DNA from: Flavobacteriales bacterium
GTDB lineage: Bacteria; Bacteroidota; Bacteroidia; CAIKAF01
Direction: 5' to 3'
Assembly: GCA_022402535.1 (NCBI GenBank)
Contig: JAKRSD010000019.1
Location: 14,224-78,223, forward strand
DNA: 64,000 nucleotides
This document shows, piece after piece, positions 2,210 to 59,267 of the stretch (within the stretch, counting starts at the first letter, position 1; each line of letters starts with the position of its first letter). Under the pieces are notes generated by a model. That model did not search any database and was not told the origin of the DNA. It saw nothing but the letters and a program-made list of their open reading frames with translations. Made by a program: the position numbers and the translations under genes.

Positions 2210-2818
2210 TTATAAAGCCTTAAACTGATAACCCAATGCAGAGAATTGCACTAAAAAAGCCGGGAGGATTTGTAAGACTTTCTCGCGGGTTTTGTCTGAA
2301 TCGTGTAATACGATTACCGAACCGTTTCGGGTCTGTTTTTTTAATTTTGAAAGGCACTTTTCCCAGGAATAAGCGGGCTCATATTCTTCTGCAATCACAT
2401 CCCACATCACGATTCGGGTTTCGGTTTTCAGCGTTCGATACAGCGATAGGGTGATTTTTCCGTACGGTGGTCTGAAATAAGCGGAAGGAACACATGCCAT
2501 GCCTTTTCGGACATCGTTCAGATAATCCGTTTTTTCCGTTTTACAGGCATTCACATGCGAATAGGAGTGGCTTCCCAGCGTATGTCCGTCCTGTTTTATT
2601 TTTTCAACGATTTCCGGAAAGGTTTCCGCATTTTTTCCGATAAGAAAAAAGGTAGCTTGGGCTTCAAACTTCTTTAGTACACGTAAAATTTCTGCGGTAC
2701 CTGCTTCGGTGGGGCCGTCATCAAAAGTGAGGTAGAGGACTTTTTGGTCTCCCATTTTTTTTCTGAAAATAACCTCAGGAAAAAGCCGCGAGAGTATGCC
2801 CGGAGTTCTGGGAAGCAT
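2210..2818 (-). CDS. Polysaccharide deacetylase (NodB/CE4)
   Basis: LTFDDGP, HSYSH, FRPPYG and VLHD motifs. Confidence 0.93.
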   Translation of the reverse strand: MLPRTPGILSRLFPEVIFRKKMGDQKVLYLTFDDGPTEAGTAEILRVLKKFEAQATFFLIGKNAETFPEIVEKIKQDGHTLGSHSYSHVNACKTEKTDYLNDVRKGMACVPSAYFRPPYGKITLSLYRTLKTETRIVMWDVIAEEYEPAYSWEKCLSKLKKQTRNGSVIVLHDSDKTREKVLQILPAFLVQFSALGYQFKAL

Positions 2819-2821
2819 GAA

Positions 2822-3805
2822 TTAATATTTTCGGTCGGTGGTGAAATTCACCAGCCCGATCAATGAACTTTTATACGCAGAGTCAGGCAGTTCATCCAGC
2901 ATGCGGATGGCTTCATTTTTAATGGCCAGCATCTTCTCTTCCGCATAATTCAATCCGCCCGATTTTTTGACAAAATCAATCACTTCTGCCACCTTTTTGG
3001 GGTCATTGTTATTGTTTTTCACCGTGCTGATTATTCTTCTTTTTTCGGAAGCGGGCGCTTTGGAAAGTGCATAAATCAAGGGCAGGGTCATTTTCTGCTC
3101 TTTAATGTCTATGCCGGTGGGTTTTCCGATTAATGAGGAGTTTTCATAATCGAATAAATCATCTTTTATCTGAAAGGCAATGCCCACTTTTTCACCAAAA
3201 ATACGCATGTGTTCCACCCGGTTTTCATCCGAGCCCGAAGCATAGGCCCCACAGGCACAGCAGGAAGCTATAAGCGAAGCCGTTTTTCGGGTTATGATTT
3301 CAAAATAAACGTCTTCGGTAATATCGAGCCGGCGGGCTTTTTCAATCTGTAGTAATTCGCCTTCACTCATCAGTCGCACGGCATCGGAAGTTATCCTGAG
3401 CAGTTCAAAATCTTTGTTTTCAACCGATAATAACAGCCCTTTCGACAATAAAAAATCGCCTACCAATACGGCAATTTTATTTTTCCACAGGGCGTTGATG
3501 GAGAAAAAACCTCTTCTTTCCAGCGAATCGTCCACTACATCATCGTGCACAAGCGTAGCCGTGTGAAGCAATTCAATCAGTGAAGCGGCCCGGTAAACCG
3601 AATCATTGAAATTTCCAGTAGCGCCCGCCGTAAGAAATACAAACAGAGGACGAATCTGTTTTCCTTTCCTTTTTACAATGTACCGGGTAATCTTATCGAG
3701 CAGAGGAACAGAAGTACTCATGGATTTTTTGAACTTGGTTTCAAAAACATCCATGTGGTTTTTAACAGGCTCCTGTATCTCTTTCAGTGTTTTCAAGCGG
3801 CTCAA
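2822..3805 (-). CDS. ispB: Long-chain polyprenyl diphosphate synthase (IspB-like)
   Basis: GKQIRP, LVHDDVVD (FARM), FQIKDDLFD (SARM); TTG start. Confidence 0.9.
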   Translation of the reverse strand: MSRLKTLKEIQEPVKNHMDVFETKFKKSMSTSVPLLDKITRYIVKRKGKQIRPLFVFLTAGATGNFNDSVYRAASLIELLHTATLVHDDVVDDSLERRGFFSINALWKNKIAVLVGDFLLSKGLLLSVENKDFELLRITSDAVRLMSEGELLQIEKARRLDITEDVYFEIITRKTASLIASCCACGAYASGSDENRVEHMRIFGEKVGIAFQIKDDLFDYENSSLIGKPTGIDIKEQKMTLPLIYALSKAPASEKRRIISTVKNNNNDPKKVAEVIDFVKKSGGLNYAEEKMLAIKNEAIRMLDELPDSAYKSSLIGLVNFTTDRKY

Positions 3806-16651: not shown

Positions 16652-16844
16652 GTATATGTTTCCTGTAATTATTTAAGATAGAATGCAAAAAAAGATTCCA
16701 CTTTGACGTAATCTTTTTTTTTGGAGGTGGGGGAACAACTGAATTGTTTTGTGATCTTGTATGAATAAGGTCAAAAATCACATGCCACGCTTTGAGTAAG
16801 CTTTATATTTTCTTCCCCTCGGATGCATGCTGCTTCTCGGGAAG

Positions 16845-16878
16845 AAAATAAAAACGCCTCCACCAAAGGTGAAGGCGT
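16845..16878 (-). terminator. Terminator of tRNA-Val
   Basis: Minus strand ACGCCTTCACC-TTT-GGTGGAGGCGT followed by TTTTATTTT. Confidence 0.8.
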
Positions 16879-16890
16879 GTGTTTCACTTG

Positions 16891-16965
16891 TGGGAGCAAC
16901 AGGATTCGAACCTGTGACCCTCTGCTTGTAAGGCAGATGCTCTGAACCAGCTGAGCTATGCTCCC
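16891..16965 (-). tRNA. tRNA-Val (TAC)
   Basis: GGGAGCATAGCTCAGCTGGTTCAGAGCATCTGCCTTACAAGCAGAGGGTCACAGGTTCGAATCCTGTTGCTCCCA folds as a cloverleaf. Confidence 0.97.
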
Positions 16966-17040
16966 TCTTTCGGTGAACAGAAAGAATCCATTGGTGATAG
17001 AGTGTCTTTCTGGTGATAGAGACCCGTTTGAAACGGAGTG

Positions 17041-17071
17041 CAAATGTATGGACTGTTTTTTATTCACCAAA
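17041..17071 (-). promoter_or_regulatory. Promoter for tRNA-Val
   Basis: TTTG-N19-TACATTTG. Confidence 0.78.
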
Positions 17072-17192
17072 AAAAATGAATAAAAAAAATAAAGCTAGAG
17101 TGTAACTGCCAGCAAATCAGGTATAAAAAAGACTAAATTGAGTACTTGGACATCGAAATTAACACCCTAAACAACTTGATTTGAAGTACATT

Positions 17193-17229: not shown

Positions 17230-18279
17230 ATGGTCACATTGATAGCCTCCAATCAAGGACCCCATGCACAACCTTTGGAAGAGCGCAAATCTGCACATAT
17301 CGATTTGGCGTTTGCATCGCAGACAGAACATGCCCAGGCAGATTCACGATTCTATTATGAACCCGCTTTGTCAGGGCATCCCCGGTCAGAATTAGCTCCA
17401 CTATCTTTTCTGAAAAAAACATTCAGAACGCCAATCTGGGTATCCAGTATGACGGGCGGTACGGAAATGGCCAAAATTATCAATCAAAATCTGGCTCGCG
17501 CCTGCGCCGAATTCGGCATGGGAATGGGCTTGGGCTCCTGCCGTCCCTTATTAGAAGGAAATGAACGCTTTGAGGATTTTAATTTACGGCCCATCATCGG
17601 GAATGAACAACCTTTATATGCCAATTTGGGCGTAGCACAGCTCGAAGAACTTTTTGCTGCCAAACAAGGTCATCGAATCATCGAACTCGTTGAGTCCATT
17701 CAGGCTGATGGATTAATCGTACACATCAACCCGTTACAAGAGTGGTTTCAGCCCGAAGGCGATCGATACTTTCGTTCTCCGGTGGACATCGTTTCCGAAG
17801 TGCTCGACACCGTTTCTTTTCCGGTAATTGTGAAAGAAGTGGGGCAGGGAATGGGGCCCGAAAGTATTCGTGCATTTCTCAAAATGCCCATAGCAGCGTT
17901 GGATTTTGGCGCTTTTGGAGGAACGAATTTTTCTAAATTGGAAATGCTCCGCGATAAAAACGGAAGAGCTACCCGCTTTGAGCCTCTGATAACAGTGGGG
18001 CACACGGCATATGAAATGGTGCAGTTTGTAAATGAAATATACAGACAGGAGGGAGACAAACTGGCCTGCAAAGAAATTATCATTTCCGGGGGCGTCAATA
18101 CTTTCTTAGATGGATATTACCTCACGGAGTCCTGTCATTTATCTGCTGTTTATGGCCAGGCATCGGCATTCTTAAAACACGCTGCCGGTAATTACGAAGA
18201 TTTGCGCATCTATGTTCAGTCTCAGATTGATGGACTGCGTGTGGCGAAAGCCATGCTGAAGGTCAGAAATAATCAATAA
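17230..18279 (+). CDS. fni: Type 2 (FMN-dependent) isopentenyl-diphosphate isomerase
   Basis: RK..HI, SSMTGG, GLGS.R, ANLG, H.NPLQE, VKEVG.G, GGTNF. Confidence 0.93.
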   Translation: MVTLIASNQGPHAQPLEERKSAHIDLAFASQTEHAQADSRFYYEPALSGHPRSELAPLSFLKKTFRTPIWVSSMTGGTEMAKIINQNLARACAEFGMGMGLGSCRPLLEGNERFEDFNLRPIIGNEQPLYANLGVAQLEELFAAKQGHRIIELVESIQADGLIVHINPLQEWFQPEGDRYFRSPVDIVSEVLDTVSFPVIVKEVGQGMGPESIRAFLKMPIAALDFGAFGGTNFSKLEMLRDKNGRATRFEPLITVGHTAYEMVQFVNEIYRQEGDKLACKEIIISGGVNTFLDGYYLTESCHLSAVYGQASAFLKHAAGNYEDLRIYVQSQIDGLRVAKAMLKVRNNQ

Positions 18280-51885: not shown

Positions 51886-53520
51886 ATGGAAAACACAACA
51901 TTCGGAAACTTAATGAATTTTGAGCTTCCTAAAGATAAAGGTTCCATTATCAAAGTGGTTGGTGTAGGCGGTGGCGGAAGCAACGCCGTGAATCACATGT
52001 TTAACCTGGGAATCCGCGAAGTGGATTTTGTGGTTTGTAATACCGATGAACAGGCTTTGATGGCCAGTCCGATTCCCATTAAAATACAATTGGGTGCCGA
52101 TCTTACCGAAGGCCGCGGAGCCGGCTCTATTCCTGAAGTGGGAAAAAATGCCGCCATTGAAAATTTGGAAGATGTGCGCACGGTGTTTTCTGAAAGCACC
52201 AAAATGATTTTCATCACCGCCGGAATGGGCGGAGGAACGGGAACAGGCGCTGCGCCGGTGATTGCCCAGGCTGCCCGCGAAATGGGCATCCTCACCGTGG
52301 GAATCGTTACCATGCCTTTTGCTTTTGAAGGTCGCAAGCGGAGAGATCAGGCCGAAAAAGGATTGAATGATTTACGTAAACATGTAGATACACTTCTGGT
52401 TATATCCAACGAAAAATTACGCGAAATTCATGGTAATCTCACCATGAGTGCCGCCTTTGCCAAAGCCGATGATGTATTGTCGGTAGCGGCCAAATCCATT
52501 GCCGAAATTATTACTGTTCCCGGTTTGGTGAACGTGGATTTTGCGGATGTGCGCACCGTAATGACCGACGGAGGAAATGCCATCATGGGATCTGCCGAAG
52601 CTTCGGGCGAGGGTAGAGCCATGCGTGCCGTTGAAAATGCCATGTCTTCTCCGTTGTTAAATGACAACTGCATCGTAGGTGCCCGTCACGTACTGTTATA
52701 TATTTCTTACGGCGATAAAGAAATGGGTATGGACGAAATGTCTGAAATTACCGATTTCGTGCAGGAAGAAGCCGGACAAACCGCTGAAATTATCTGGGGA
52801 ACCGGATTCGATTCTTCACTGGGCGATAATTTACGGGTAACCGTAATTGCCACCGGATTTACCTCTAATGAAAACACGGTGCAGGCGGTTGATAATAAAC
52901 TGTCTAAAGTGGTGTTGGATGTGGAAACCCCTGCGGTGGCTGAGATTACACCCGAGGTGACGCCTGTGGCTTCAACTAATGAGATTGTTTTTGAGGAGCG
53001 CACCGTGGAAGGACCGTTGGCCAATAATGCCATAGAAAACACTTTTGTTCCCGAAAACAAAACCGAAGTAGAATACCTGAATCTTACGGTTGAGGATCTG
53101 AATAATTCCGGAGCGGATGCATTGCCGGCGTTGGATTTATTCCAGCCCGAAAAAGGAGCTGAAGACATATTCACCCCGATTTCGGAGAATACCCCGGTTA
53201 ACGAAGATATTTTTACTCCGGTAACCGATAAGGTGCCGCTGGCTTCTTTTGATAACAAACCGGTTCCCGAGCCCGAAAAAACAAAAGAAGATTTATACCG
53301 TCAGAATGAGCGTATGCTCAGATTGAAAGAAATCAGCCACCGGCTTAAAAGTCCTTCCGGTTTGAAAGATCTGGAATCGGAGCCTGCATATATGCGCCGC
53401 AATATCAAATTGGAAGAAAACACCGATAACCACGCCATTTCGGGTTCTTCGGTTTCGTTTGAAGACGGCGAAGTAAAAATTGTAAAAGAGAACCGTTTCC
53501 TGCATGGAAACGTAGATTAA
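51886..53520 (+). CDS. ftsZ: Cell division protein FtsZ (long acidic linker)
   Basis: GVGGGGSNAV, GGGTGTG, NVDFADV, EPAY.RR, C-terminal FLHGNVD. Confidence 0.98.
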   Translation: MENTTFGNLMNFELPKDKGSIIKVVGVGGGGSNAVNHMFNLGIREVDFVVCNTDEQALMASPIPIKIQLGADLTEGRGAGSIPEVGKNAAIENLEDVRTVFSESTKMIFITAGMGGGTGTGAAPVIAQAAREMGILTVGIVTMPFAFEGRKRRDQAEKGLNDLRKHVDTLLVISNEKLREIHGNLTMSAAFAKADDVLSVAAKSIAEIITVPGLVNVDFADVRTVMTDGGNAIMGSAEASGEGRAMRAVENAMSSPLLNDNCIVGARHVLLYISYGDKEMGMDEMSEITDFVQEEAGQTAEIIWGTGFDSSLGDNLRVTVIATGFTSNENTVQAVDNKLSKVVLDVETPAVAEITPEVTPVASTNEIVFEERTVEGPLANNAIENTFVPENKTEVEYLNLTVEDLNNSGADALPALDLFQPEKGAEDIFTPISENTPVNEDIFTPVTDKVPLASFDNKPVPEPEKTKEDLYRQNERMLRLKEISHRLKSPSGLKDLESEPAYMRRNIKLEENTDNHAISGSSVSFEDGEVKIVKENRFLHGNVD

Positions 53521-53550
53521 TACGGTTTAGATTAACAACAAACAGAGAAC

Positions 53551-53590
53551 ATACAGGCGCCCCGCTCATACCGGGGCGTTTTGTATTTTT
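53551..53590 (+). terminator. ftsZ terminator
   Basis: ATACAGGCGCCCCG-loop-CGGGGCGTTTTGTATTTTT. Confidence 0.8.
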
Positions 53591-53594
53591 AGCC

Positions 53595-53732
53595 TTTTTT
53601 GCGCAGCGGCGGCATTTTTGCTGACTTTTTTTGCTGCAGAAAAAAGTCAGAGCCCGCCCGGCTTGAGGGCGACGAATCAGCGTGAGAGTGGAAGTGAGAG
53701 TGAGAACGAGAGTGAAAATGCAGGAATTGCTT
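53595..53732. repeat. Structured intergenic repeat, short copy
   Basis: Hairpin CTGACTTTTTT/AAAAAAGTCAG, then AGCCCGCCCGGCTTGAGGGC, GAATCAGCGTGAGAGTG and GAGAGT hexamers; homologous to modules in 57967-58424. Confidence 0.85.
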
Positions 53733-53833
53733 ATGTAAAAAGCCGCTTCCTGCATGGAAAAGTAGTTTATATACTACAAACCGAAAACAAACCGCCGCCC
53801 TGTATATTGCGGGGCGTTTTGTATTTTTGCGCC
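53733..53833 (+). repeat. Diverged direct duplication of the ftsZ 3' end and terminator (copy 1 at 53481-53594)
   Basis: TTCCTGCATGGAAA (14/14) and CGGGGCGTTTTGTATTTTT (19/19) are shared; translates VKSRFLHGKV versus VKENRFLHGNVD. Confidence 0.9.
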
Positions 53834-54019
53834 ATGAGTGATTTTAGTTCCGGATATCGCCCGCCTTTAGAGAAAGAAGACTTCTACTACTCGCCCGAGG
53901 GGTATATCATCTTTACGGAAAAATACCACCTGAAACGCGGCTATTGCTGCAAAAGCGGCTGCAAACACTGCCCCTACGGATACAACAAAAAAACGGGAAG
54001 AATAGAAGGGAAAAAGTAG
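53834..54019 (+). CDS. Small Cys-rich protein, DUF5522-like
   Basis: DFYY..EG..IFT..YHLKRGYCC.SGC.HCPY, 61 aa; the upstream part of the tracked ORF is repeat-derived. Confidence 0.85.
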   Translation: MSDFSSGYRPPLEKEDFYYSPEGYIIFTEKYHLKRGYCCKSGCKHCPYGYNKKTGRIEGKK

Positions 54020-54068
54020 GGGTAAAGATTTTTGAATATATTTATCCTTTACATTAACCCGCTTTTCT

Positions 54069-56102
54069 ATGTATTTGATTCAGAAATTAGAAAAAACTGA
54101 TAACATTCAAAATATTGTACATGATTTTCATGAAAACATATATCCAAGTGATTTATTTGATTTTTTTGAGTTTGGTCCGATAAAAAACATCAATATTTTT
54201 ATTGGAGAAAATAATTCAAGAAAAAGTAGACTTATTAGGCAGCTTTTTGCTAATCCCATTTATGTTTCTAAAAATATAATATCTCATGAGAATATCGAAT
54301 TTTTGAAATTCCTTAAACTTATTAAAGAAAATTTAATCGAAAATGTTTCAATTAATAATAATGATAGTAGTACAATTGATTTGGCATTACCTTCAGAAAT
54401 CGAGCCTAAACTGACAGAACTGAAATATTTAATTGGTAATTCTGGCATTAGTGTTTCAAAAAATAGTTTAGATACTTTTATTCAAAATGTAATAAACTTT
54501 ATTTTACCAGATACTGATACACAAAAAGCTGATTTATATGAAAATAAAATATTTAAGCTTTTAAGAGTTATTATTCTTCGTAATGAACTTAATTTGTTAT
54601 CGAAGCGAGTCTCATCAAGATTTAAATTAAATGGAATTCGAATAACATCTGATTTTGAAGTTGTTGATTTTGATAATGTTAAATCAGTGTTAGATCGAAT
54701 CGATTCAGGAAGTAAAATTTCAAGTGATTTAATGAATCCAAATTCTAAGATGTATTTCCCAGTATTTAGGTCATCTCATTCTTTTTTTCATAATGATGTC
54801 AAAATTACTGAAGATATACTTAAGGATACTACGGCAAATAATTTTTTTAAAAATCAAGAAAAAGCAAAACTTAATATATATACAGGTTTTGACTTTAGTG
54901 AAAAAATACTTGTTGCACGAACTGGAAGAAAAGACTCTAGAAATAAATTTAATGATTTCGAAAATTTTGTAAGTAAGCATTTTTTTGGGGGAAAGCCCAT
55001 TGACATTACAAGCACGTATTCTAATAAGAATGAAGAAAAATCTGTCAAAATCTATATAGATGGAGAGGATAAACATGATAGAACCATTAATGAATTAGGC
55101 GATGGGATTCAAGCATTATTGTTAATGCTCTATCCTATTTTCATGGCGGATGAGAATACCTGGTTTTTCATTGAAGAACCTGAGTTACATCTTCATCCTG
55201 GATACCAGAAATTGTTTATTAAAACAATACTCGAAAATGAGAATATATTTAACAAGAACCTAAAATTTTTCATCACTTCTCATTCTAATCATTTTTTAGA
55301 GTCAGCTATAGAGTATAAAAATGACATTTCGATATTTCGTTTGCAAAAAGTCATTAATGCTAATTATTCCAGAATATTACCAATTGCTGAGAATTATACG
55401 GATGTGTTGCGTTCAATCGGAGTGAATAATCTTTCCGTAGTTATGGCAAATTGCTCTATTTGGGTTGAAGGAAATAGCGACAGACTGATTATTCAGAAAT
55501 TTCTTGAAGTGTATTTAAATGAAGTATTGCAAAAGCGTTTTATAATTGGTTTACACTATACTTTTTTTGAGTATGGTGGTTCATTACTAGGCCATTATTT
55601 ATTTGATGAAACCAAAAATGAAGAAAATGAAAAAATCAAGGCAATGTTCCTTTCCAATAGAATATTTTTGCTTGCAGATTATGATAAAAAAAGACAATCT
55701 AAGCATAGTATTTATCAGTTAGTTTCTCAGAATAATAAAGAATTTAAATATCAAACAACTATTGGAGTTGAGATTGAAAATATCATACCTGCAAGTATTC
55801 TTTTAAAGTTTTCAGAAGAAGTTTTAAAAGCTGAGATTAAAGATTCAAATGCATTTATAAGTTATATCAAAAAAAATAATACTCATAAAAGAGTCGGTTC
55901 AATATTGAAAGAAGTACTACCAAATGTTAGATTGAAATTTTGTGCTGAAAATGGCACTTTAACTAATGATTACAAAAGAAAATTGTCAGAGTTTATTTCT
56001 AAGCAGCAGAAACTGGATTGGAACGCAATCAAAGAAAATAAATTTGCTAAAGAAATAATTGAAAAGATGGGAAGTTTTATAGAATCTAATAATCCTTCTT
56101 AA
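54069..56102 (+). CDS. OLD-family-like ABC ATPase + TOPRIM nuclease (AT-rich, likely horizontally acquired)
   Basis: FIGENNSRKS, LGDG, FFIEEPELHLHP, ITSHS; TOPRIM WVEG.SD and D.D (LADYD). Confidence 0.82.
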   Translation: MYLIQKLEKTDNIQNIVHDFHENIYPSDLFDFFEFGPIKNINIFIGENNSRKSRLIRQLFANPIYVSKNIISHENIEFLKFLKLIKENLIENVSINNNDSSTIDLALPSEIEPKLTELKYLIGNSGISVSKNSLDTFIQNVINFILPDTDTQKADLYENKIFKLLRVIILRNELNLLSKRVSSRFKLNGIRITSDFEVVDFDNVKSVLDRIDSGSKISSDLMNPNSKMYFPVFRSSHSFFHNDVKITEDILKDTTANNFFKNQEKAKLNIYTGFDFSEKILVARTGRKDSRNKFNDFENFVSKHFFGGKPIDITSTYSNKNEEKSVKIYIDGEDKHDRTINELGDGIQALLLMLYPIFMADENTWFFIEEPELHLHPGYQKLFIKTILENENIFNKNLKFFITSHSNHFLESAIEYKNDISIFRLQKVINANYSRILPIAENYTDVLRSIGVNNLSVVMANCSIWVEGNSDRLIIQKFLEVYLNEVLQKRFIIGLHYTFFEYGGSLLGHYLFDETKNEENEKIKAMFLSNRIFLLADYDKKRQSKHSIYQLVSQNNKEFKYQTTIGVEIENIIPASILLKFSEEVLKAEIKDSNAFISYIKKNNTHKRVGSILKEVLPNVRLKFCAENGTLTNDYKRKLSEFISKQQKLDWNAIKENKFAKEIIEKMGSFIESNNPS

Positions 56103-56221
56103 TACACCCTTATGGATTTTCATGCCTATGGTTAGTGTTATCCCCGCATATTCGTTAGATAAAAACATACCCACAAGGTGTAAATCTATCAAATTTATAT
56201 TCATTTCAACCGTTTAAGGAT

Positions 56222-57790
56222 TCAATATACCCTTCTGAATTTCCCCTGCGAAAAAATATAGCTTCTGTCGTCAATTTCAATTTTTCCGCCTTCTTCTATC
56301 TTGTGCAGGTCGGTTATATCCGAATACGGCGTATGCACCGTAGCTTTCAGTTGCCGGGCCAGGGTAAGCAGATCGGTGTTTAATCCGCCTTGCGAAGAGC
56401 AGAGAATAACCGATACGGGTTTGGTTACCTGTGCGGCCAATCGCGCATCCCGGGGAAAAGCATAGTTATCCGCAATCCAAATCAGCCGCTCGGCAAACGG
56501 AAAAATCTTTTCCGCCTCCAACAGGGCTTCCATATCATTTTCGGGCAAATCGCCACCAAAACCGTTTCGCATGGCCCGCAGCATTTCTTTTTCCACTACG
56601 TCGGAGTTGGACGAAGGCACAAGGTAAATGCCGCCCGTGTTGCCCACCTGTTTGCGGGCATCGGGTTGGGTGTCTCCATCGTTGAAAAACGTAAAATATT
56701 TAATGCGGCTCTGATTGCTTCTGAACCATCCCATCAAATCGCTCAGGTATGGGCCCATACTGCCCGTAACATCACACACCACCGAAAGGTTTTTCCACTG
56801 CGGATTCCGGATAAATACATCGCTCACCACGGTGCTGCGTTCGGTGTTATATTTTTCGGGCGAATACCCCTCCGGAACAATCAGAATCAACTCGCAGGAG
56901 CTTTCTGCCCCGGGCGGAAAAATCCCGTTGCTGATAAACCAGAACGAAAGGGTTACATAAGCGTTTACATTGCCGGCTTTGCTTTTGGCGGGTGTCCACC
57001 GGGGCATGCTTTTGAGGTAATTTTTAACGGCCTCATCGCAGCCGAATCCCAACCCGTTGGTAATGCGTATATCCTGCACGCCGCCTGCACGGTTCACGGT
57101 AATCTGGGCTTCCACCCGCCCCGAAATTTTTCTTTTCAGCGCTTCTTCCGGATAGGTGATATGGGCAGCCGCATCTTCGGGCAGTTCGCAGCGGTCTTTA
57201 CCAAATTCAGGGCCTTTGTCGTAGTACCTCACCGGGTCTGCATCGTAGGGCGTAGGTGTGGTTCTTTCTTTGAATTTTGAATCGGTAACGGTGCTTCCTT
57301 TTTTGCGTTCTTCCAGGTCTTTCATTAGGGTCGTAATTTCCGTTTCCCGCTCGGTTTTGCTCAGGTTTCCCGGTCGGGTTTTGAGAATAAATCCGTGGAA
57401 ATAGGTTTTCCCTTCCGCATAATCTTCCGCTCCGGTCTGTTCGGTAATTATCCATTCCACCCCGCCTGAATTAAATGCAAACGGAATCCTGTTTTTTAAT
57501 TGCTGAAGCCGCTGCAGATTCAGTTTTTTCTGGTTGAAGGCATCCGATCTTCGGTAGCGGGTATAGACCAATTCCACGGAAATGATTTCTTCATTTTTTC
57601 CGGGTTGGGCAGATTGGAATTGTAGGGCGGCATTGCCGTACAGAGCCGGCAGCATATAGGTGTATGGCGGCAGATTTTCGGTGTTTACCTGTTTTACCGT
57701 TTGCATTTTGTAATCCACAATGTCTTCGGGGCGGGTTTGGCCCATGGCCGTTAAGCCTATAAAAAGCAGGGGGAATAAGTATTTCATCAT
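56222..57790 (-). CDS. Secreted protein: unknown N-domain + TonB C-terminal domain + VWA-like domain
   Basis: Signal peptide; YP..A....ISGRV...ITV...G, GLG.GCD.A, W.PA; then VCDVTGSM, FNDGD, PEND.EA, IAD. Confidence 0.8.
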   Translation of the reverse strand: MMKYLFPLLFIGLTAMGQTRPEDIVDYKMQTVKQVNTENLPPYTYMLPALYGNAALQFQSAQPGKNEEIISVELVYTRYRRSDAFNQKKLNLQRLQQLKNRIPFAFNSGGVEWIITEQTGAEDYAEGKTYFHGFILKTRPGNLSKTERETEITTLMKDLEERKKGSTVTDSKFKERTTPTPYDADPVRYYDKGPEFGKDRCELPEDAAAHITYPEEALKRKISGRVEAQITVNRAGGVQDIRITNGLGFGCDEAVKNYLKSMPRWTPAKSKAGNVNAYVTLSFWFISNGIFPPGAESSCELILIVPEGYSPEKYNTERSTVVSDVFIRNPQWKNLSVVCDVTGSMGPYLSDLMGWFRSNQSRIKYFTFFNDGDTQPDARKQVGNTGGIYLVPSSNSDVVEKEMLRAMRNGFGGDLPENDMEALLEAEKIFPFAERLIWIADNYAFPRDARLAAQVTKPVSVILCSSQGGLNTDLLTLARQLKATVHTPYSDITDLHKIEEGGKIEIDDRSYIFSQGKFRRVY

Positions 57791-57800
57791 ACTGCGGAGT

Positions 57801-57894
57801 GTTTTCAAATGTAAGTTAATTTCATGCGTTTTGGTCTCGATTTAACGAAAAATAGGGATTAGGATATTGTTTTCCGGCTGTCATGATTTTAACC
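57801..57894. repeat. Left copy of the duplicated divergent-promoter segment (right copy at 58522-58621)
   Basis: 57820-57857 versus 58543-58580 identical at 36/38; the flanks align with more divergence. Confidence 0.9.
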
Positions 57895-57966
57895 CCTTCT
57901 GTCCGGGCTTGTCGCACCACCCTATTTATTGTATAACATACAGAGAAATCAGTAGTGAATCTTTTG

Positions 57967-58424
57967 TCTGCTCGCCGCAGGGCAACGAATCAGAGTGAGA
58001 ACGAGAGTGAGAATGAAAAAGGAGTAATTGTTTTTTTTTCTGCTCGCCGCAAGGCAACGAATCAGCGTGAGAGTGGGGAGCGAAAGCGGGGAATAATTTT
58101 ACCCAAACATATACGGAAATATTACCGTCCGGATAAGAAAGCCCTGCTTTCGGCAGCGTAGGAAGAAAAAGGCGTTAAGAAACGGCGAAGCCTTGGAGGC
58201 GTTTTAGCCTTTTTCTTCCGGTGCTCTGCAACGCCTCCGGAAGCAGTGCCTTTTCTTTGTTTACTTTCTTTGGGCAGTTCAAAGAAAGTAAAAGCCTGCC
58301 CGGCTTGAGGGCAACACTAGATTGAGAGTGAGAAAGAGAGAGAAAATGCAATAATCGTTTCTTTTTTCTGCTCGCCGCAGGGCGATGAATCAGCGTGAGA
58401 GTGGGGAGCGAAAGTGGAGTGAAT
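57967..58424. repeat. Structured modular repeat cluster (candidate non-autonomous mobile element)
   Basis: TCTGCTCGCCGCA(G/A)GGC..GAATCAG at 57967, 58039 and 58367; 13-bp perfect IR 58161-58173/58207-58219; hairpin 58260-58292; GAGAGT tails. Confidence 0.85.
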
Positions 58425-58604
58425 TTCAAGTTTTCTGCTATATGACGCAGGCTCCTGGTGCCCTTAATTGTCTTTACTTTTATTGTAACCGCCTTTGAGT
58501 ACAAAATTACTTAGAACTTTAGTATTTAAATTTACGCTTAGCTTTCATGCGTTTTGGCCCCGATTTAACGAAAAATAGGGTTTGATACATTCCGAAATCC
58601 GGGC

Positions 58605-58645
58605 TGACATTATGTCAAACCGGAGGGTATTGGTACAAAATTCGA
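58605..58645 (+). promoter_or_regulatory. Palindrome TGACAT-T-ATGTCA plus possible -24/-12-like element upstream of grpE
   Basis: Perfect palindrome at 58605-58617; TGGTAC-N4-TTCGA at 58631-58645. Confidence 0.5.
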
Positions 58646-58703
58646 TTCCAAGGCATGAAAGGTTTAAAACAGGTAAATAAACCGCGATTCAATTTTTAAA
58701 GTC

Positions 58704-59267
58704 ATGAGCGAAACGCACGAAATGAACGAAGAGCCAATTACTCCTGAAAGCATTCAGGAAAATGAACAAAATGAGGGCGTACAGGGAGAAAACAATGCAG
58801 AAACTGCCGAAACGGATTCCCAAAATAACTTCGAACAGAAGTATAACGAAACTTACGACCGGTATGTGAGACTGATTGCCGAATTTGAAAATTATAAAAA
58901 ACGGACGGTAAAGGAGCGCATGGATCTTGTCAAAACGGCAGGTGCCGATGTGGTTTCTGCCATATTGCCCGTGGCCGATGATTTTAACCGGGCGTTCAAA
59001 TCGTTTGAAACCGCCACCGAGCTCGACGCCGTGAAGGAAGGCCTCGAACTGATTTATAAAAAATTCTGGAAAGTGCTTTCCGACAAAGGGTTGGAAGAAA
59101 TGATGCCGGCTACCGGCGAGGTTTTCGATGCCGATATTCATGAAGCCATTACCCAGATTCCGGCCCCTTCGGAAGCGTTAAAAGGAAAAATTCTGGATGT
59201 GGTGGAAAAAGGTTTTTCACTCAACGGAAAAATATTGCGTTACCCCAAAGTGGTGGTAGGCGCGTAA
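58704..59267 (+). CDS. grpE: Nucleotide exchange factor GrpE
   Basis: R..AEFENYKKR, LPV.D, FD...HEA, KG..L..K.LR..KVVV. Confidence 0.97.
   Translation: MSETHEMNEEPITPESIQENEQNEGVQGENNAETAETDSQNNFEQKYNETYDRYVRLIAEFENYKKRTVKERMDLVKTAGADVVSAILPVADDFNRAFKSFETATELDAVKEGLELIYKKFWKVLSDKGLEEMMPATGEVFDADIHEAITQIPAPSEALKGKILDVVEKGFSLNGKILRYPKVVVGA

Follow-up and report, generated by a model that had tools for sequence, protein, structure and literature searches.

Foreign DNA can come to lie between two copies of a host segment by several described routes. In Campbell-type integration, the single crossover of a circular molecule duplicates the homologous segment, and in homology-facilitated illegitimate recombination, homology on a single side suffices for the entry of foreign DNA, and no enzyme of the incoming element is needed; both routes are known mainly from laboratory transformation and suicide vectors. 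Miniature inverted-repeat transposable elements (MITEs) have inverted ends and are flanked by short target duplications of fixed length. Phage 21 resides in the icd gene of Escherichia coli. The prophage e14 likewise lies between icd and icdC, a 3'-fragment pseudogene, and its excision is associated with parallel synonymous changes (PMC13626634). Direct repeats of 8 to 514 bp are reported for the insertion sequences IS1549 and IS1634, with no proposed mechanism (PMC2266710). Here we describe two short repeat inserts, each enclosed by diverged direct duplications of about 100 bp of host DNA, in a 64,000-nucleotide stretch (the window) of a Flavobacteriales bacterium (assembly GCA_022402535.1, contig JAKRSD010000019.1, positions 14,224 to 78,223). 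One lies between ftsZ and a DUF5522 gene (locus 1) and the other between a TonB_C-domain protein gene and grpE (locus 2). The duplication pattern is general in this genome and is not specific to the repeat family.

At locus 1, ftsZ (51886-53520, plus strand; Pfam Tubulin and FtsZ_C) is followed by a 143-bp insert (53591-53733, plus strand), identified by its match to the repeat family and made up of a diverged head, one hairpin, a gcccgcccggcttgagggc box, and a GA-rich tail. The working copy of the duplicated segment, A (53481-53590, plus strand, delimited by alignment with its partner), comprises the final 40 bp of ftsZ and, after a spacer, the terminator, with a terminator-like hairpin at 53555-53581 and a T-run. 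Copy A' (53734-53828, plus strand) is a decayed relic of the ftsZ end that has lost the stop codon and has a net 3-nt deletion; it retains an intact terminator-like hairpin (53796-53816) and T-run directly 5' of the DUF5522 gene (53834-54019, plus strand; Pfam DUF5522 on 53846-54019, with the ATG start at 53834 being our reading). The two copies are 71.8% identical over 110 columns (E 5.5e-10, BLAST in the 3.41-Mb genome), and the same search finds no third place in the genome for the pair.

The insert at locus 2 is longer (627 bp; 57895-58521, plus strand). It contains three units of about 59 nt (57959-58017, 58031-58089, and 58359-58417), a core of about 190 nt with nested hairpins and a tail (core module 58125-58312, plus strand), and about 130 bp of locus-specific DNA (57895-57927 and 58424-58521). 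On its left is copy B (57801-57894, plus strand), the region upstream of the TonB_C-domain gene (56222-57790, minus strand), for which Pfam gives TonB_C only at E up to 0.001, so that the label VWA given to this gene in the initial annotation is dropped. B aligns with B' (58522-58621, plus strand), which precedes grpE (58704-59267, plus strand; Pfam GrpE), with 92.7% identity over a 41-nt core (57820-57860 and 58543-58583); by BLAST, the pair occupies only these two places in the genome. The TonB_C-proximal part of B and the grpE-proximal part of B' are conserved with a genome of the same genus (G002). Both neighbors at each locus thus keep their signals, as the initial annotation proposed: A and A' each have a terminator-like hairpin and T-run, and B and B' each keep the part nearest to their gene. 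Its view that the two inserts are homologous also stands, since they share the 59-nt unit, the GA-rich tail, and the 3' part of the 190-nt core, and the family to which they belong is real, multi-copy, and rich in hairpins. Alignment of the left against the right 300-bp flank scores 73 at locus 1 and 71 at locus 2, compared with a 99th percentile of 31 and a maximum of 48 in 600 random placements. Together with the alignments and the uniqueness of both pairs, these scores confirm repeat inserts between diverged duplications of about 100 bp.

Single-copy empty sites exist for both loci. In G002 and in the metagenome contigs L135 and L155, ftsZ, a single terminator copy, and the adjoining DUF5522 gene follow one another in that order. 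At locus 2, G002 has one TonB_C-grpE spacer of about 140 bp that mixes features of B and B'. Because these relatives hold single-copy empty sites, the insert with its duplication is supported as the derived state at both loci, in keeping with the insertions claimed earlier. The 19-mer cggggcgttttgtattttt (53572-53590 and 53810-53828), the 3' half of the ftsZ terminator with its T-run, recurs unchanged in A, A', G002, L135, and L155, and the remaining segment is 60% to 79% identical. A metagenome scan with the 19-mer returned 40 loci, two of which are the ftsZ locus and the others unrelated matches. A search of genome contigs with FtsZ retrieved distant named relatives only, with best-segment identities of 43% to 68% (55% for the top-ranked). 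The 19-mer terminates in tatttttg in A' and in G002; we take this end to resemble the Bacteroidetes -7 promoter box, and the 19-mer may double as a terminator and a promoter.

Assembly from other reads bears on whether the duplications are chimeras of two strains, the outcome that the initial annotation named as a refutation. A 41-kb Logan contig of run X1, a freshwater metagenome from which the window probably comes, spans 53300-58167 with zero differences. Two other studies (runs X2 and X3) have contigs over A (53300-53592) and over A' (53689 or 53696 to about 54030) at about 97% to 99% identity, and the listed contig of a third (run X7) spans 53786-53966 only, which is part of A'. The X1 contig and the contigs of the other studies rule out an assembly chimera at the window loci. 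In X2 and X3, the path departs at 53592 and rejoins at about 53690, with different module sequence in place of 53593-53688; strains therefore vary in the modules that separate A from A', and A and A' themselves persist. Around locus 2, 31 differences separate X2 from the window in 57210-58000 and none in 58354-58700, a stretch without differences in X3 and X7 as well. The contrast within X2 implies a recombination break inside the locus 2 insert. Uncovered parts in X2, X3, and X7 were not read as absence, and the uncovered interval at 54.2-56.0 kb is a hint only.

The same architecture surrounds inserts that have nothing to do with the repeat family. A scan of the genome for unique two-copy direct pairs (35 to 260 bp long, 100 to 2500 bp apart) gave 34 pairs, 13 of which were kept because they enclose an insert and their copies occupy non-coding DNA or the end of a gene. 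The 21 uncounted pairs are mostly inside long open reading frames (ORFs), as internal repeats or tandem paralogues; two are at N-runs and one is in a hairpin array on C28. Adding one pair from the flank test (C12:92989) and two of five unique long-range pairs brings the curated set to 16 inserts with duplications of 42 to 219 bp; C7:35029, C25:95594, and C16:67182, as well as the long-range pairs C7 62828/148992, C19 30754/34724, and C29 172819/262218, were left out. Repeat pairs spaced exactly 100 bp apart flank runs of 100 Ns and are artefacts of scaffolding, where overlapping contig ends were joined; such pairs (C11:187890-188075, C12:219645-219840, C7:106815-107024, C21:81460-81806, and C12:130820-132647) were removed from all counts.

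Five of the 16 inserts belong to the repeat family and 11 have unrelated cargo, one of them with none identified. An AAA_14/DUF4143 ATPase gene follows mutS (98 bp duplicated, 95% identical), a PemK/MazF gene follows groEL (95 bp, 90.5%), and a Fic gene lies between copies of 112 bp (94.6%). Other inserts encode a deaminase with an HATPase_c_4 protein, a Por_Secre_tail protein with an AraC regulator, an S1-domain protein, a MopE-motif protein, or a 169-aa protein with no Pfam match. The longest are a 3.4-kb insert after queG (121 bp duplicated, 88%) and a 3.2-kb insert on C19 (219 bp, 92%), and a 246-bp insert, which includes the 5' part of a small ORF, starts inside tRNA-Asn (C12:446761/447147). 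Peptidases and HTH proteins are also among the cargo. The inserts range from 143 bp to 3.4 kb and occupy at least 16 different targets, promoters and the ends of convergent genes among them. GC contents are 0.30 to 0.42 (0.30 to 0.38 in eight of nine) in the inserts that have a scanned cargo gene, compared with about 0.43 for the genome. No recombinase or transposase was found among the Pfam-scanned ORFs (at least 90 to 100 aa) in 10 of these inserts. Among the 14 inserts tested for ends, there are no common termini and no terminal inverted repeats, the best agreement between the first and the reverse-complemented last 25 nt being 8 to 14 positions. Empty sites for the C16 and C32 inserts were not found in G001, G002, G008, or G014; the flanking genes of the C16 insert were not found in these four genomes, and the neighbors of the C32 insert are on separate contigs there.

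The differences between copies indicate where one of them came from. Coding differences were classified by script where a pair overlaps an intact gene end, and at mutS (5), groEL (4), and queG (2 in 86 coding bp) all 11 of 11 are synonymous and none is non-synonymous; about 10 of the 34 adjacent non-coding positions differ at queG. In-place duplication followed by drift of the relic predicts about 42% synonymous differences by our estimate, and the nine of nine at mutS and groEL have P of about 5e-4 under it. At groEL, G002 matches the relic of the present genome (G000) at four of four sites, which identifies the relic as the native allele and the working copy as the diverged, incoming one. 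One copy most likely arrived with incoming DNA at all three genes, and the allele-like copies contradict a staggered-nick origin there. The remaining pairs are more mixed. One end of the C32 pair (X) has no coding differences, all four differences of the pair falling in its last 20 bp; the C1 pair has 2 synonymous and 2 non-synonymous differences, the ftsZ pair 1 and 2 with 3 gapped codons, and the C12:92989 pair 2 and 4 with 1 gapped codon.

The mutS end has been used more than once in this genus. It is also present twice in G002 (51 bp, 90%), around 5.7 kb of other cargo in which no recombinase was found among the five insert ORFs scanned with Pfam. The duplication stops at the mutS stop codon in both genomes, and the other boundary differs (98 vs 51 bp). 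In G001, an orthologous ATPase gene directly follows mutS and the relic is reduced to a decayed trace. The post-mutS ATPase of G000 is in the opposite orientation and only 25% identical to those of G001 and G002. Genes of the AAA_14/DUF4143 type thus lie 3' of mutS in three of three genus genomes (G000 C12:518150-519537, G002:C60 4378-5526, and G001:C212 about 2266-3516), and this ATPase family seems to have landed repeatedly at the mutS 3' end. At groEL, G002 has a repeat-family module about 115 bp past the terminator, at a contig end.

These duplications are derived, general, recombinase-free, and allele-like at three loci. The reading that we tentatively favor, at somewhat less than even confidence, is that they are scars of homology-assisted uptake from related lineages and that the hairpin modules occupy the resulting spacers. 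Beside its cargo, the incoming DNA would bring a version of the target segment, be it a gene end, a terminator, or a promoter. Either a circular or "ends-in" molecule would undergo one homologous crossover with the resident copy, as in Campbell-type integration, or a linear piece would pair with it through homology at one side, the other side being closed by an illegitimate joint. From then on, the copy that came in would serve as the working gene end, and the resident copy would remain as a relic beyond the insert. Survivors would be those events that leave complete signals to both neighbors, and only short, diverged duplications (42 to 219 bp) would escape deletion by recombination. No element-encoded enzyme would be necessary, and the finished structure could spread among strains by ordinary homologous recombination. 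REP/MITE-like nested hairpin modules (REP, repetitive extragenic palindromic) would settle and turn over in the non-functional spacers, probably moved in trans by some enzyme. Homology-assisted integration would leave copies from different lineages with the incoming one at work; this is seen at groEL, and mutS and queG are consistent with it. The initial annotation had offered three routes for the duplication, and the single crossover of a circle that carries flanking DNA fits best among them, although for the two window loci it would apply by analogy only, on the assumption that these older loci arose as the younger ones may have.

Several observations weigh against this explanation. Decay of A', and of B and B' in their far halves, makes the allele test inapplicable at the window loci, which are old. 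A' is nearest to A (0.77, compared with 0.63 to 0.70 to relatives), a result equally compatible with in-place duplication and with a close donor. Non-synonymous differences occur in the C16 pair (0 synonymous, 1 non-synonymous) and at the other end (Y) of the C32 pair (1 and 1). The C16 and C32 duplications span both convergent gene ends, so the donor must already have had that structure or have truncated the neighbor. The locus 1 insert has no remnant of other cargo, and within a population neither circles nor loop-outs nor empty alleles were seen. Later homologous spread with a crossover in the relic could overwrite any signature of the first event. A mazEF cassette 76% identical to that of G000 lies at another locus in G018 and G042 with no flanking duplication, so the duplication does not belong to the cargo as such. 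Duplications can result from homology-facilitated illegitimate recombination, on which our literature search found nothing direct. Nor did the literature searched describe natural inserts that lack a recombinase and are flanked by long duplications of gene ends.

If homology-assisted uptake is nevertheless the correct reading, short diverged duplications of gene ends, terminators, or promoters mark the recombinase-free entry of foreign DNA and the side from which it entered. They would provide a simple signature for insertion hotspots and their cargo in metagenome-assembled genomes, and would account for the accumulation of hairpin repeats at certain gene borders. Toxin-antitoxin, Fic, and ATPase genes, apparently related to defence, are among this cargo. 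A more speculative extension, which we consider unlikely, is that the inserts are mobile units without a recombinase. In such units, a 40- to 220-bp copy of a gene end (ftsZ, groEL, mutS, queG, or tRNA-Asn) would serve as an attachment arm; host recombination would loop out the unit as a circle or fragment, and a single crossover would return it into a naive relative, leaving an intact gene and a relic. RecA and the conservation of housekeeping genes would then replace the integrase and the att site.

Among the alternatives, insertion by an integrase that supplies a substitute gene end, as for e14 in icd, survives best, and we regard it as unlikely. The small inserts would be decayed remnants or integrase-less satellites mobilized in trans. 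The anatomy is equal to that of e14 between icd and icdC: the 3' end of a housekeeping gene lies on both sides of the insert, the incoming end does the work, with a pseudogene fragment left of the native one, and the copies differ mostly synonymously (PMC13626634). The synonymous-only differences and native relic at groEL, the duplication that ends exactly at the mutS stop in G000 and G002, and the pair that begins inside tRNA-Asn all agree with this. The genome has five Phage_integrase genes, three of them non-Xer-sized, but none of the five is enclosed by a direct-repeat pair. Unlike e14, which is about 15 kb long and has its own site-specific integrase, the inserts here are small, recombinase-free where scanned, and spread over many targets. 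No integrase occurs in the 10 scanned inserts or among the five ORFs scanned in the 5.7-kb insert of G002, and at least 16 targets would demand many specificities. The left boundary of the mutS duplication is not the same in the two genomes, and the gene-internal boundary of the groEL pair has only 4 identical nt. On C32, a family island is followed about 670 bp downstream by a 373-aa Phage_integrase gene (16806-17125 and 17794-18279); the island is some 3 kb from the insert that duplications flank at C32:13455-13932.

The initial annotation held that the insertion of the repeat itself duplicates about 100 bp of target, a claim that finds no support in that form. Its nearest surviving form, a non-autonomous element that is cut in by a trans-acting enzyme with widely staggered nicks and thereby leaves long, variable target duplications, appears to us improbable. 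BLAST matches of the composite repeats were merged into 16 islands, for 15 of which flanks could be compared. Six of the 15 scored 41 to 105 in the 300-bp flank test, and five have unique flanking duplications (43 to 110 bp), far above the controls: the two window loci, C12:92989/93521, C16:43194/44027, and C32:13455/13874. The other 10 lack them and occupy non-coding intervals of 382 to 2488 bp, compared with a genome median of 74 bp between long ORFs. With flanks of 1200 bp, the nine remaining islands yielded no further unique pair. The high-scoring flanks at C7:106466 are multi-copy and fall in a different hairpin array that adjoins a scaffold gap, and were dropped. So were the flank pairs at C15:27329/28463 and C13:1126/1957, which are multi-copy modules or a repeat array with a scaffold gap; a 28-bp match at C12:103976 (score 41 with 1200-bp flanks) sits 470 to 950 bp off the island and was not counted.

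An element of this kind would find a precedent in the variable repeats of IS1549 and IS1634, which extend from 8 to 514 bp and thus resemble the tens to hundreds of bp seen here (42 to 219 bp across 16 loci; PMC2266710). The locus 1 insert is almost wholly a single repeat element between the two copies, and the genome has one DDE_Tnp_1 gene (C20:2592), near which there is no repeat pair. On the other side, like duplications surround 11 unrelated inserts, and the inserts lack inverted ends. In four of the five duplication-flanked family loci, locus-specific DNA separates the modules from the duplications, and the modules change by strain where the duplications stay. IS1549 and IS1634 are autonomous DDE elements with inverted ends; the inserts here have no inverted ends and no transposase, and include unrelated cargo. 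Allele-like differences at the gene-end pairs, which unlike the repeats of these elements are not identical at birth, contradict a staggered cut there, and both the 11 of 11 synonymous differences and the native state of the displaced groEL copy make widely staggered nicks a poor fit. A long "target duplication" beside a repeat is, taken alone, no proof of new transposition chemistry.

An error of replication in place, in which a fork that has stalled copies from a hairpin-rich repeat or some other molecule before resuming upstream of its point of departure, creating an insertion with a variable duplication, seems quite improbable. Such an event would leave duplications of variable length with neither an enzyme nor defined ends; the inserts are hairpin-rich, terminator hairpins lie within many of the duplications, and the closeness of A' to A would follow. 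It leaves unexplained the foreign, GC-poor gene cargo as well as the synonymous-only differences and the native groEL relic, and no genomic donor copy was found for the locus-specific parts of the inserts. RNA-templated repair, the third of the earlier proposals, is unlikely because RVT_1 has no match in the genome, which is rated 100% complete. A diversity-generating retroelement at the ftsZ pair was rejected for the same reason, and the differences there are of all kinds, with indels, and not adenine-specific. Finally, the genome is probably metagenome-derived and its scaffold gaps do create false pairs, but a joining of two strains' locus versions through a repeat is next to negligible as an explanation, since a second assembler's contig has A, insert, and A' with zero differences, contigs of other studies hold A and A', G002 shows the same architecture at mutS as an independent assembly of another species, and the junction sequences must be present in reads.

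The repeat family itself is an undescribed hairpin family gathering at insertion sites, and looks REP/MITE-like. Full composites span about 500 bp, from gctcgccgcagggc at the start to cttgagggc and the tail at the end; in the short unit, the gctcgccgcagggc head is fused directly to the tail. The core (175 to 234 bp) occurs at about 10 places in the genome with 86% to 96% identity, two of these matches, on C12 and C16, being split or partial, and folds into nested hairpins, for which pair counts are indicative, as one aligned row (L024) is mis-oriented. Rfam 15 gave no matches in the window interval 53000-59200 at E up to 1. The core is present in another genus of the family (G008 and G014) and was undetected in G001 and G002; another family module has at least seven places in G001 (88% to 92%) and lies at contig ends of G002. 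Like MITEs, the repeats are small, non-coding, multi-copy, structured, and intergenic; unlike them, they have no inverted ends, and their duplications are 43 to 110 bp at 5 of 15 islands and lacking at 10. Short hairpin modules in mosaic, nested intergenic arrays are shared with REP sequences and bacterial interspersed mosaic elements (BIMEs), but the core of about 190 nt and the full composite of about 500 nt are longer than classical REPs.

The initial annotation placed any responsible enzyme outside the window, and indeed Y1 transposase, tyrosine integrase, reverse transcriptase, DDE_Tnp_1, rve, and TnpB have no match on the contig of the window. Genome-wide, there are one rve and two Y1_Tnp genes in addition to the integrase and DDE_Tnp_1 genes described above, and no TnpB. 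No transposase was found inside the inserts. The two Y1_Tnp genes (IS200/RAYT-like; RAYT, REP-associated tyrosine transposase) lie at C28:2950-4500 and C29:250350-252150, with arrays of short GC-rich hairpins of the gcccctacggggc and ccgaccccgctggggtcg types on both sides, the C29 array including a scaffold gap. This is the classic RAYT-REP layout. REP-like hairpins of these types adjoin some islands, but seeds of the window repeat family have no match at the Y1 loci at E 1e-4. The family thus differs from REP/RAYT systems in that its modules were not found beside either Y1 gene. Palindromes of about 19 to 24 nt, of the taccgatggctatcggta and ccccgacattcatcgtcgggg types, are present in some core copies and strains and missing from others, in the manner of very small hairpin insertions. 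This variation is seen in the C16 and C12:93k core copies and at loose ends at 58189, 58193, 53659, and 58302 in runs X2, X3, and X7.

Between the two window loci lies an AAA_15/AAA_21 ATPase gene (54069-56102, plus strand; Pfam) that is outside the repeat family. It encodes an AbiEii/OLD-like protein of 677 aa and has no flanking duplication. The gene is uncovered in run X2, and the interval from DUF5522 to TonB_C in G002 is too short for it; it looks like a strain-variable accessory gene. At tRNA-Asn, the 3' part of the tRNA, the terminator, and the first 25 or so codons of the small ORF recur 386 bp downstream (L127 = C12:446300-447800, 400-990). The small ORF is GIY-YIG-like by eye only, and the relic tRNA-Asn fragment has an 18-nt palindrome, ccccgaaagctttcgggg, within its T-arm.

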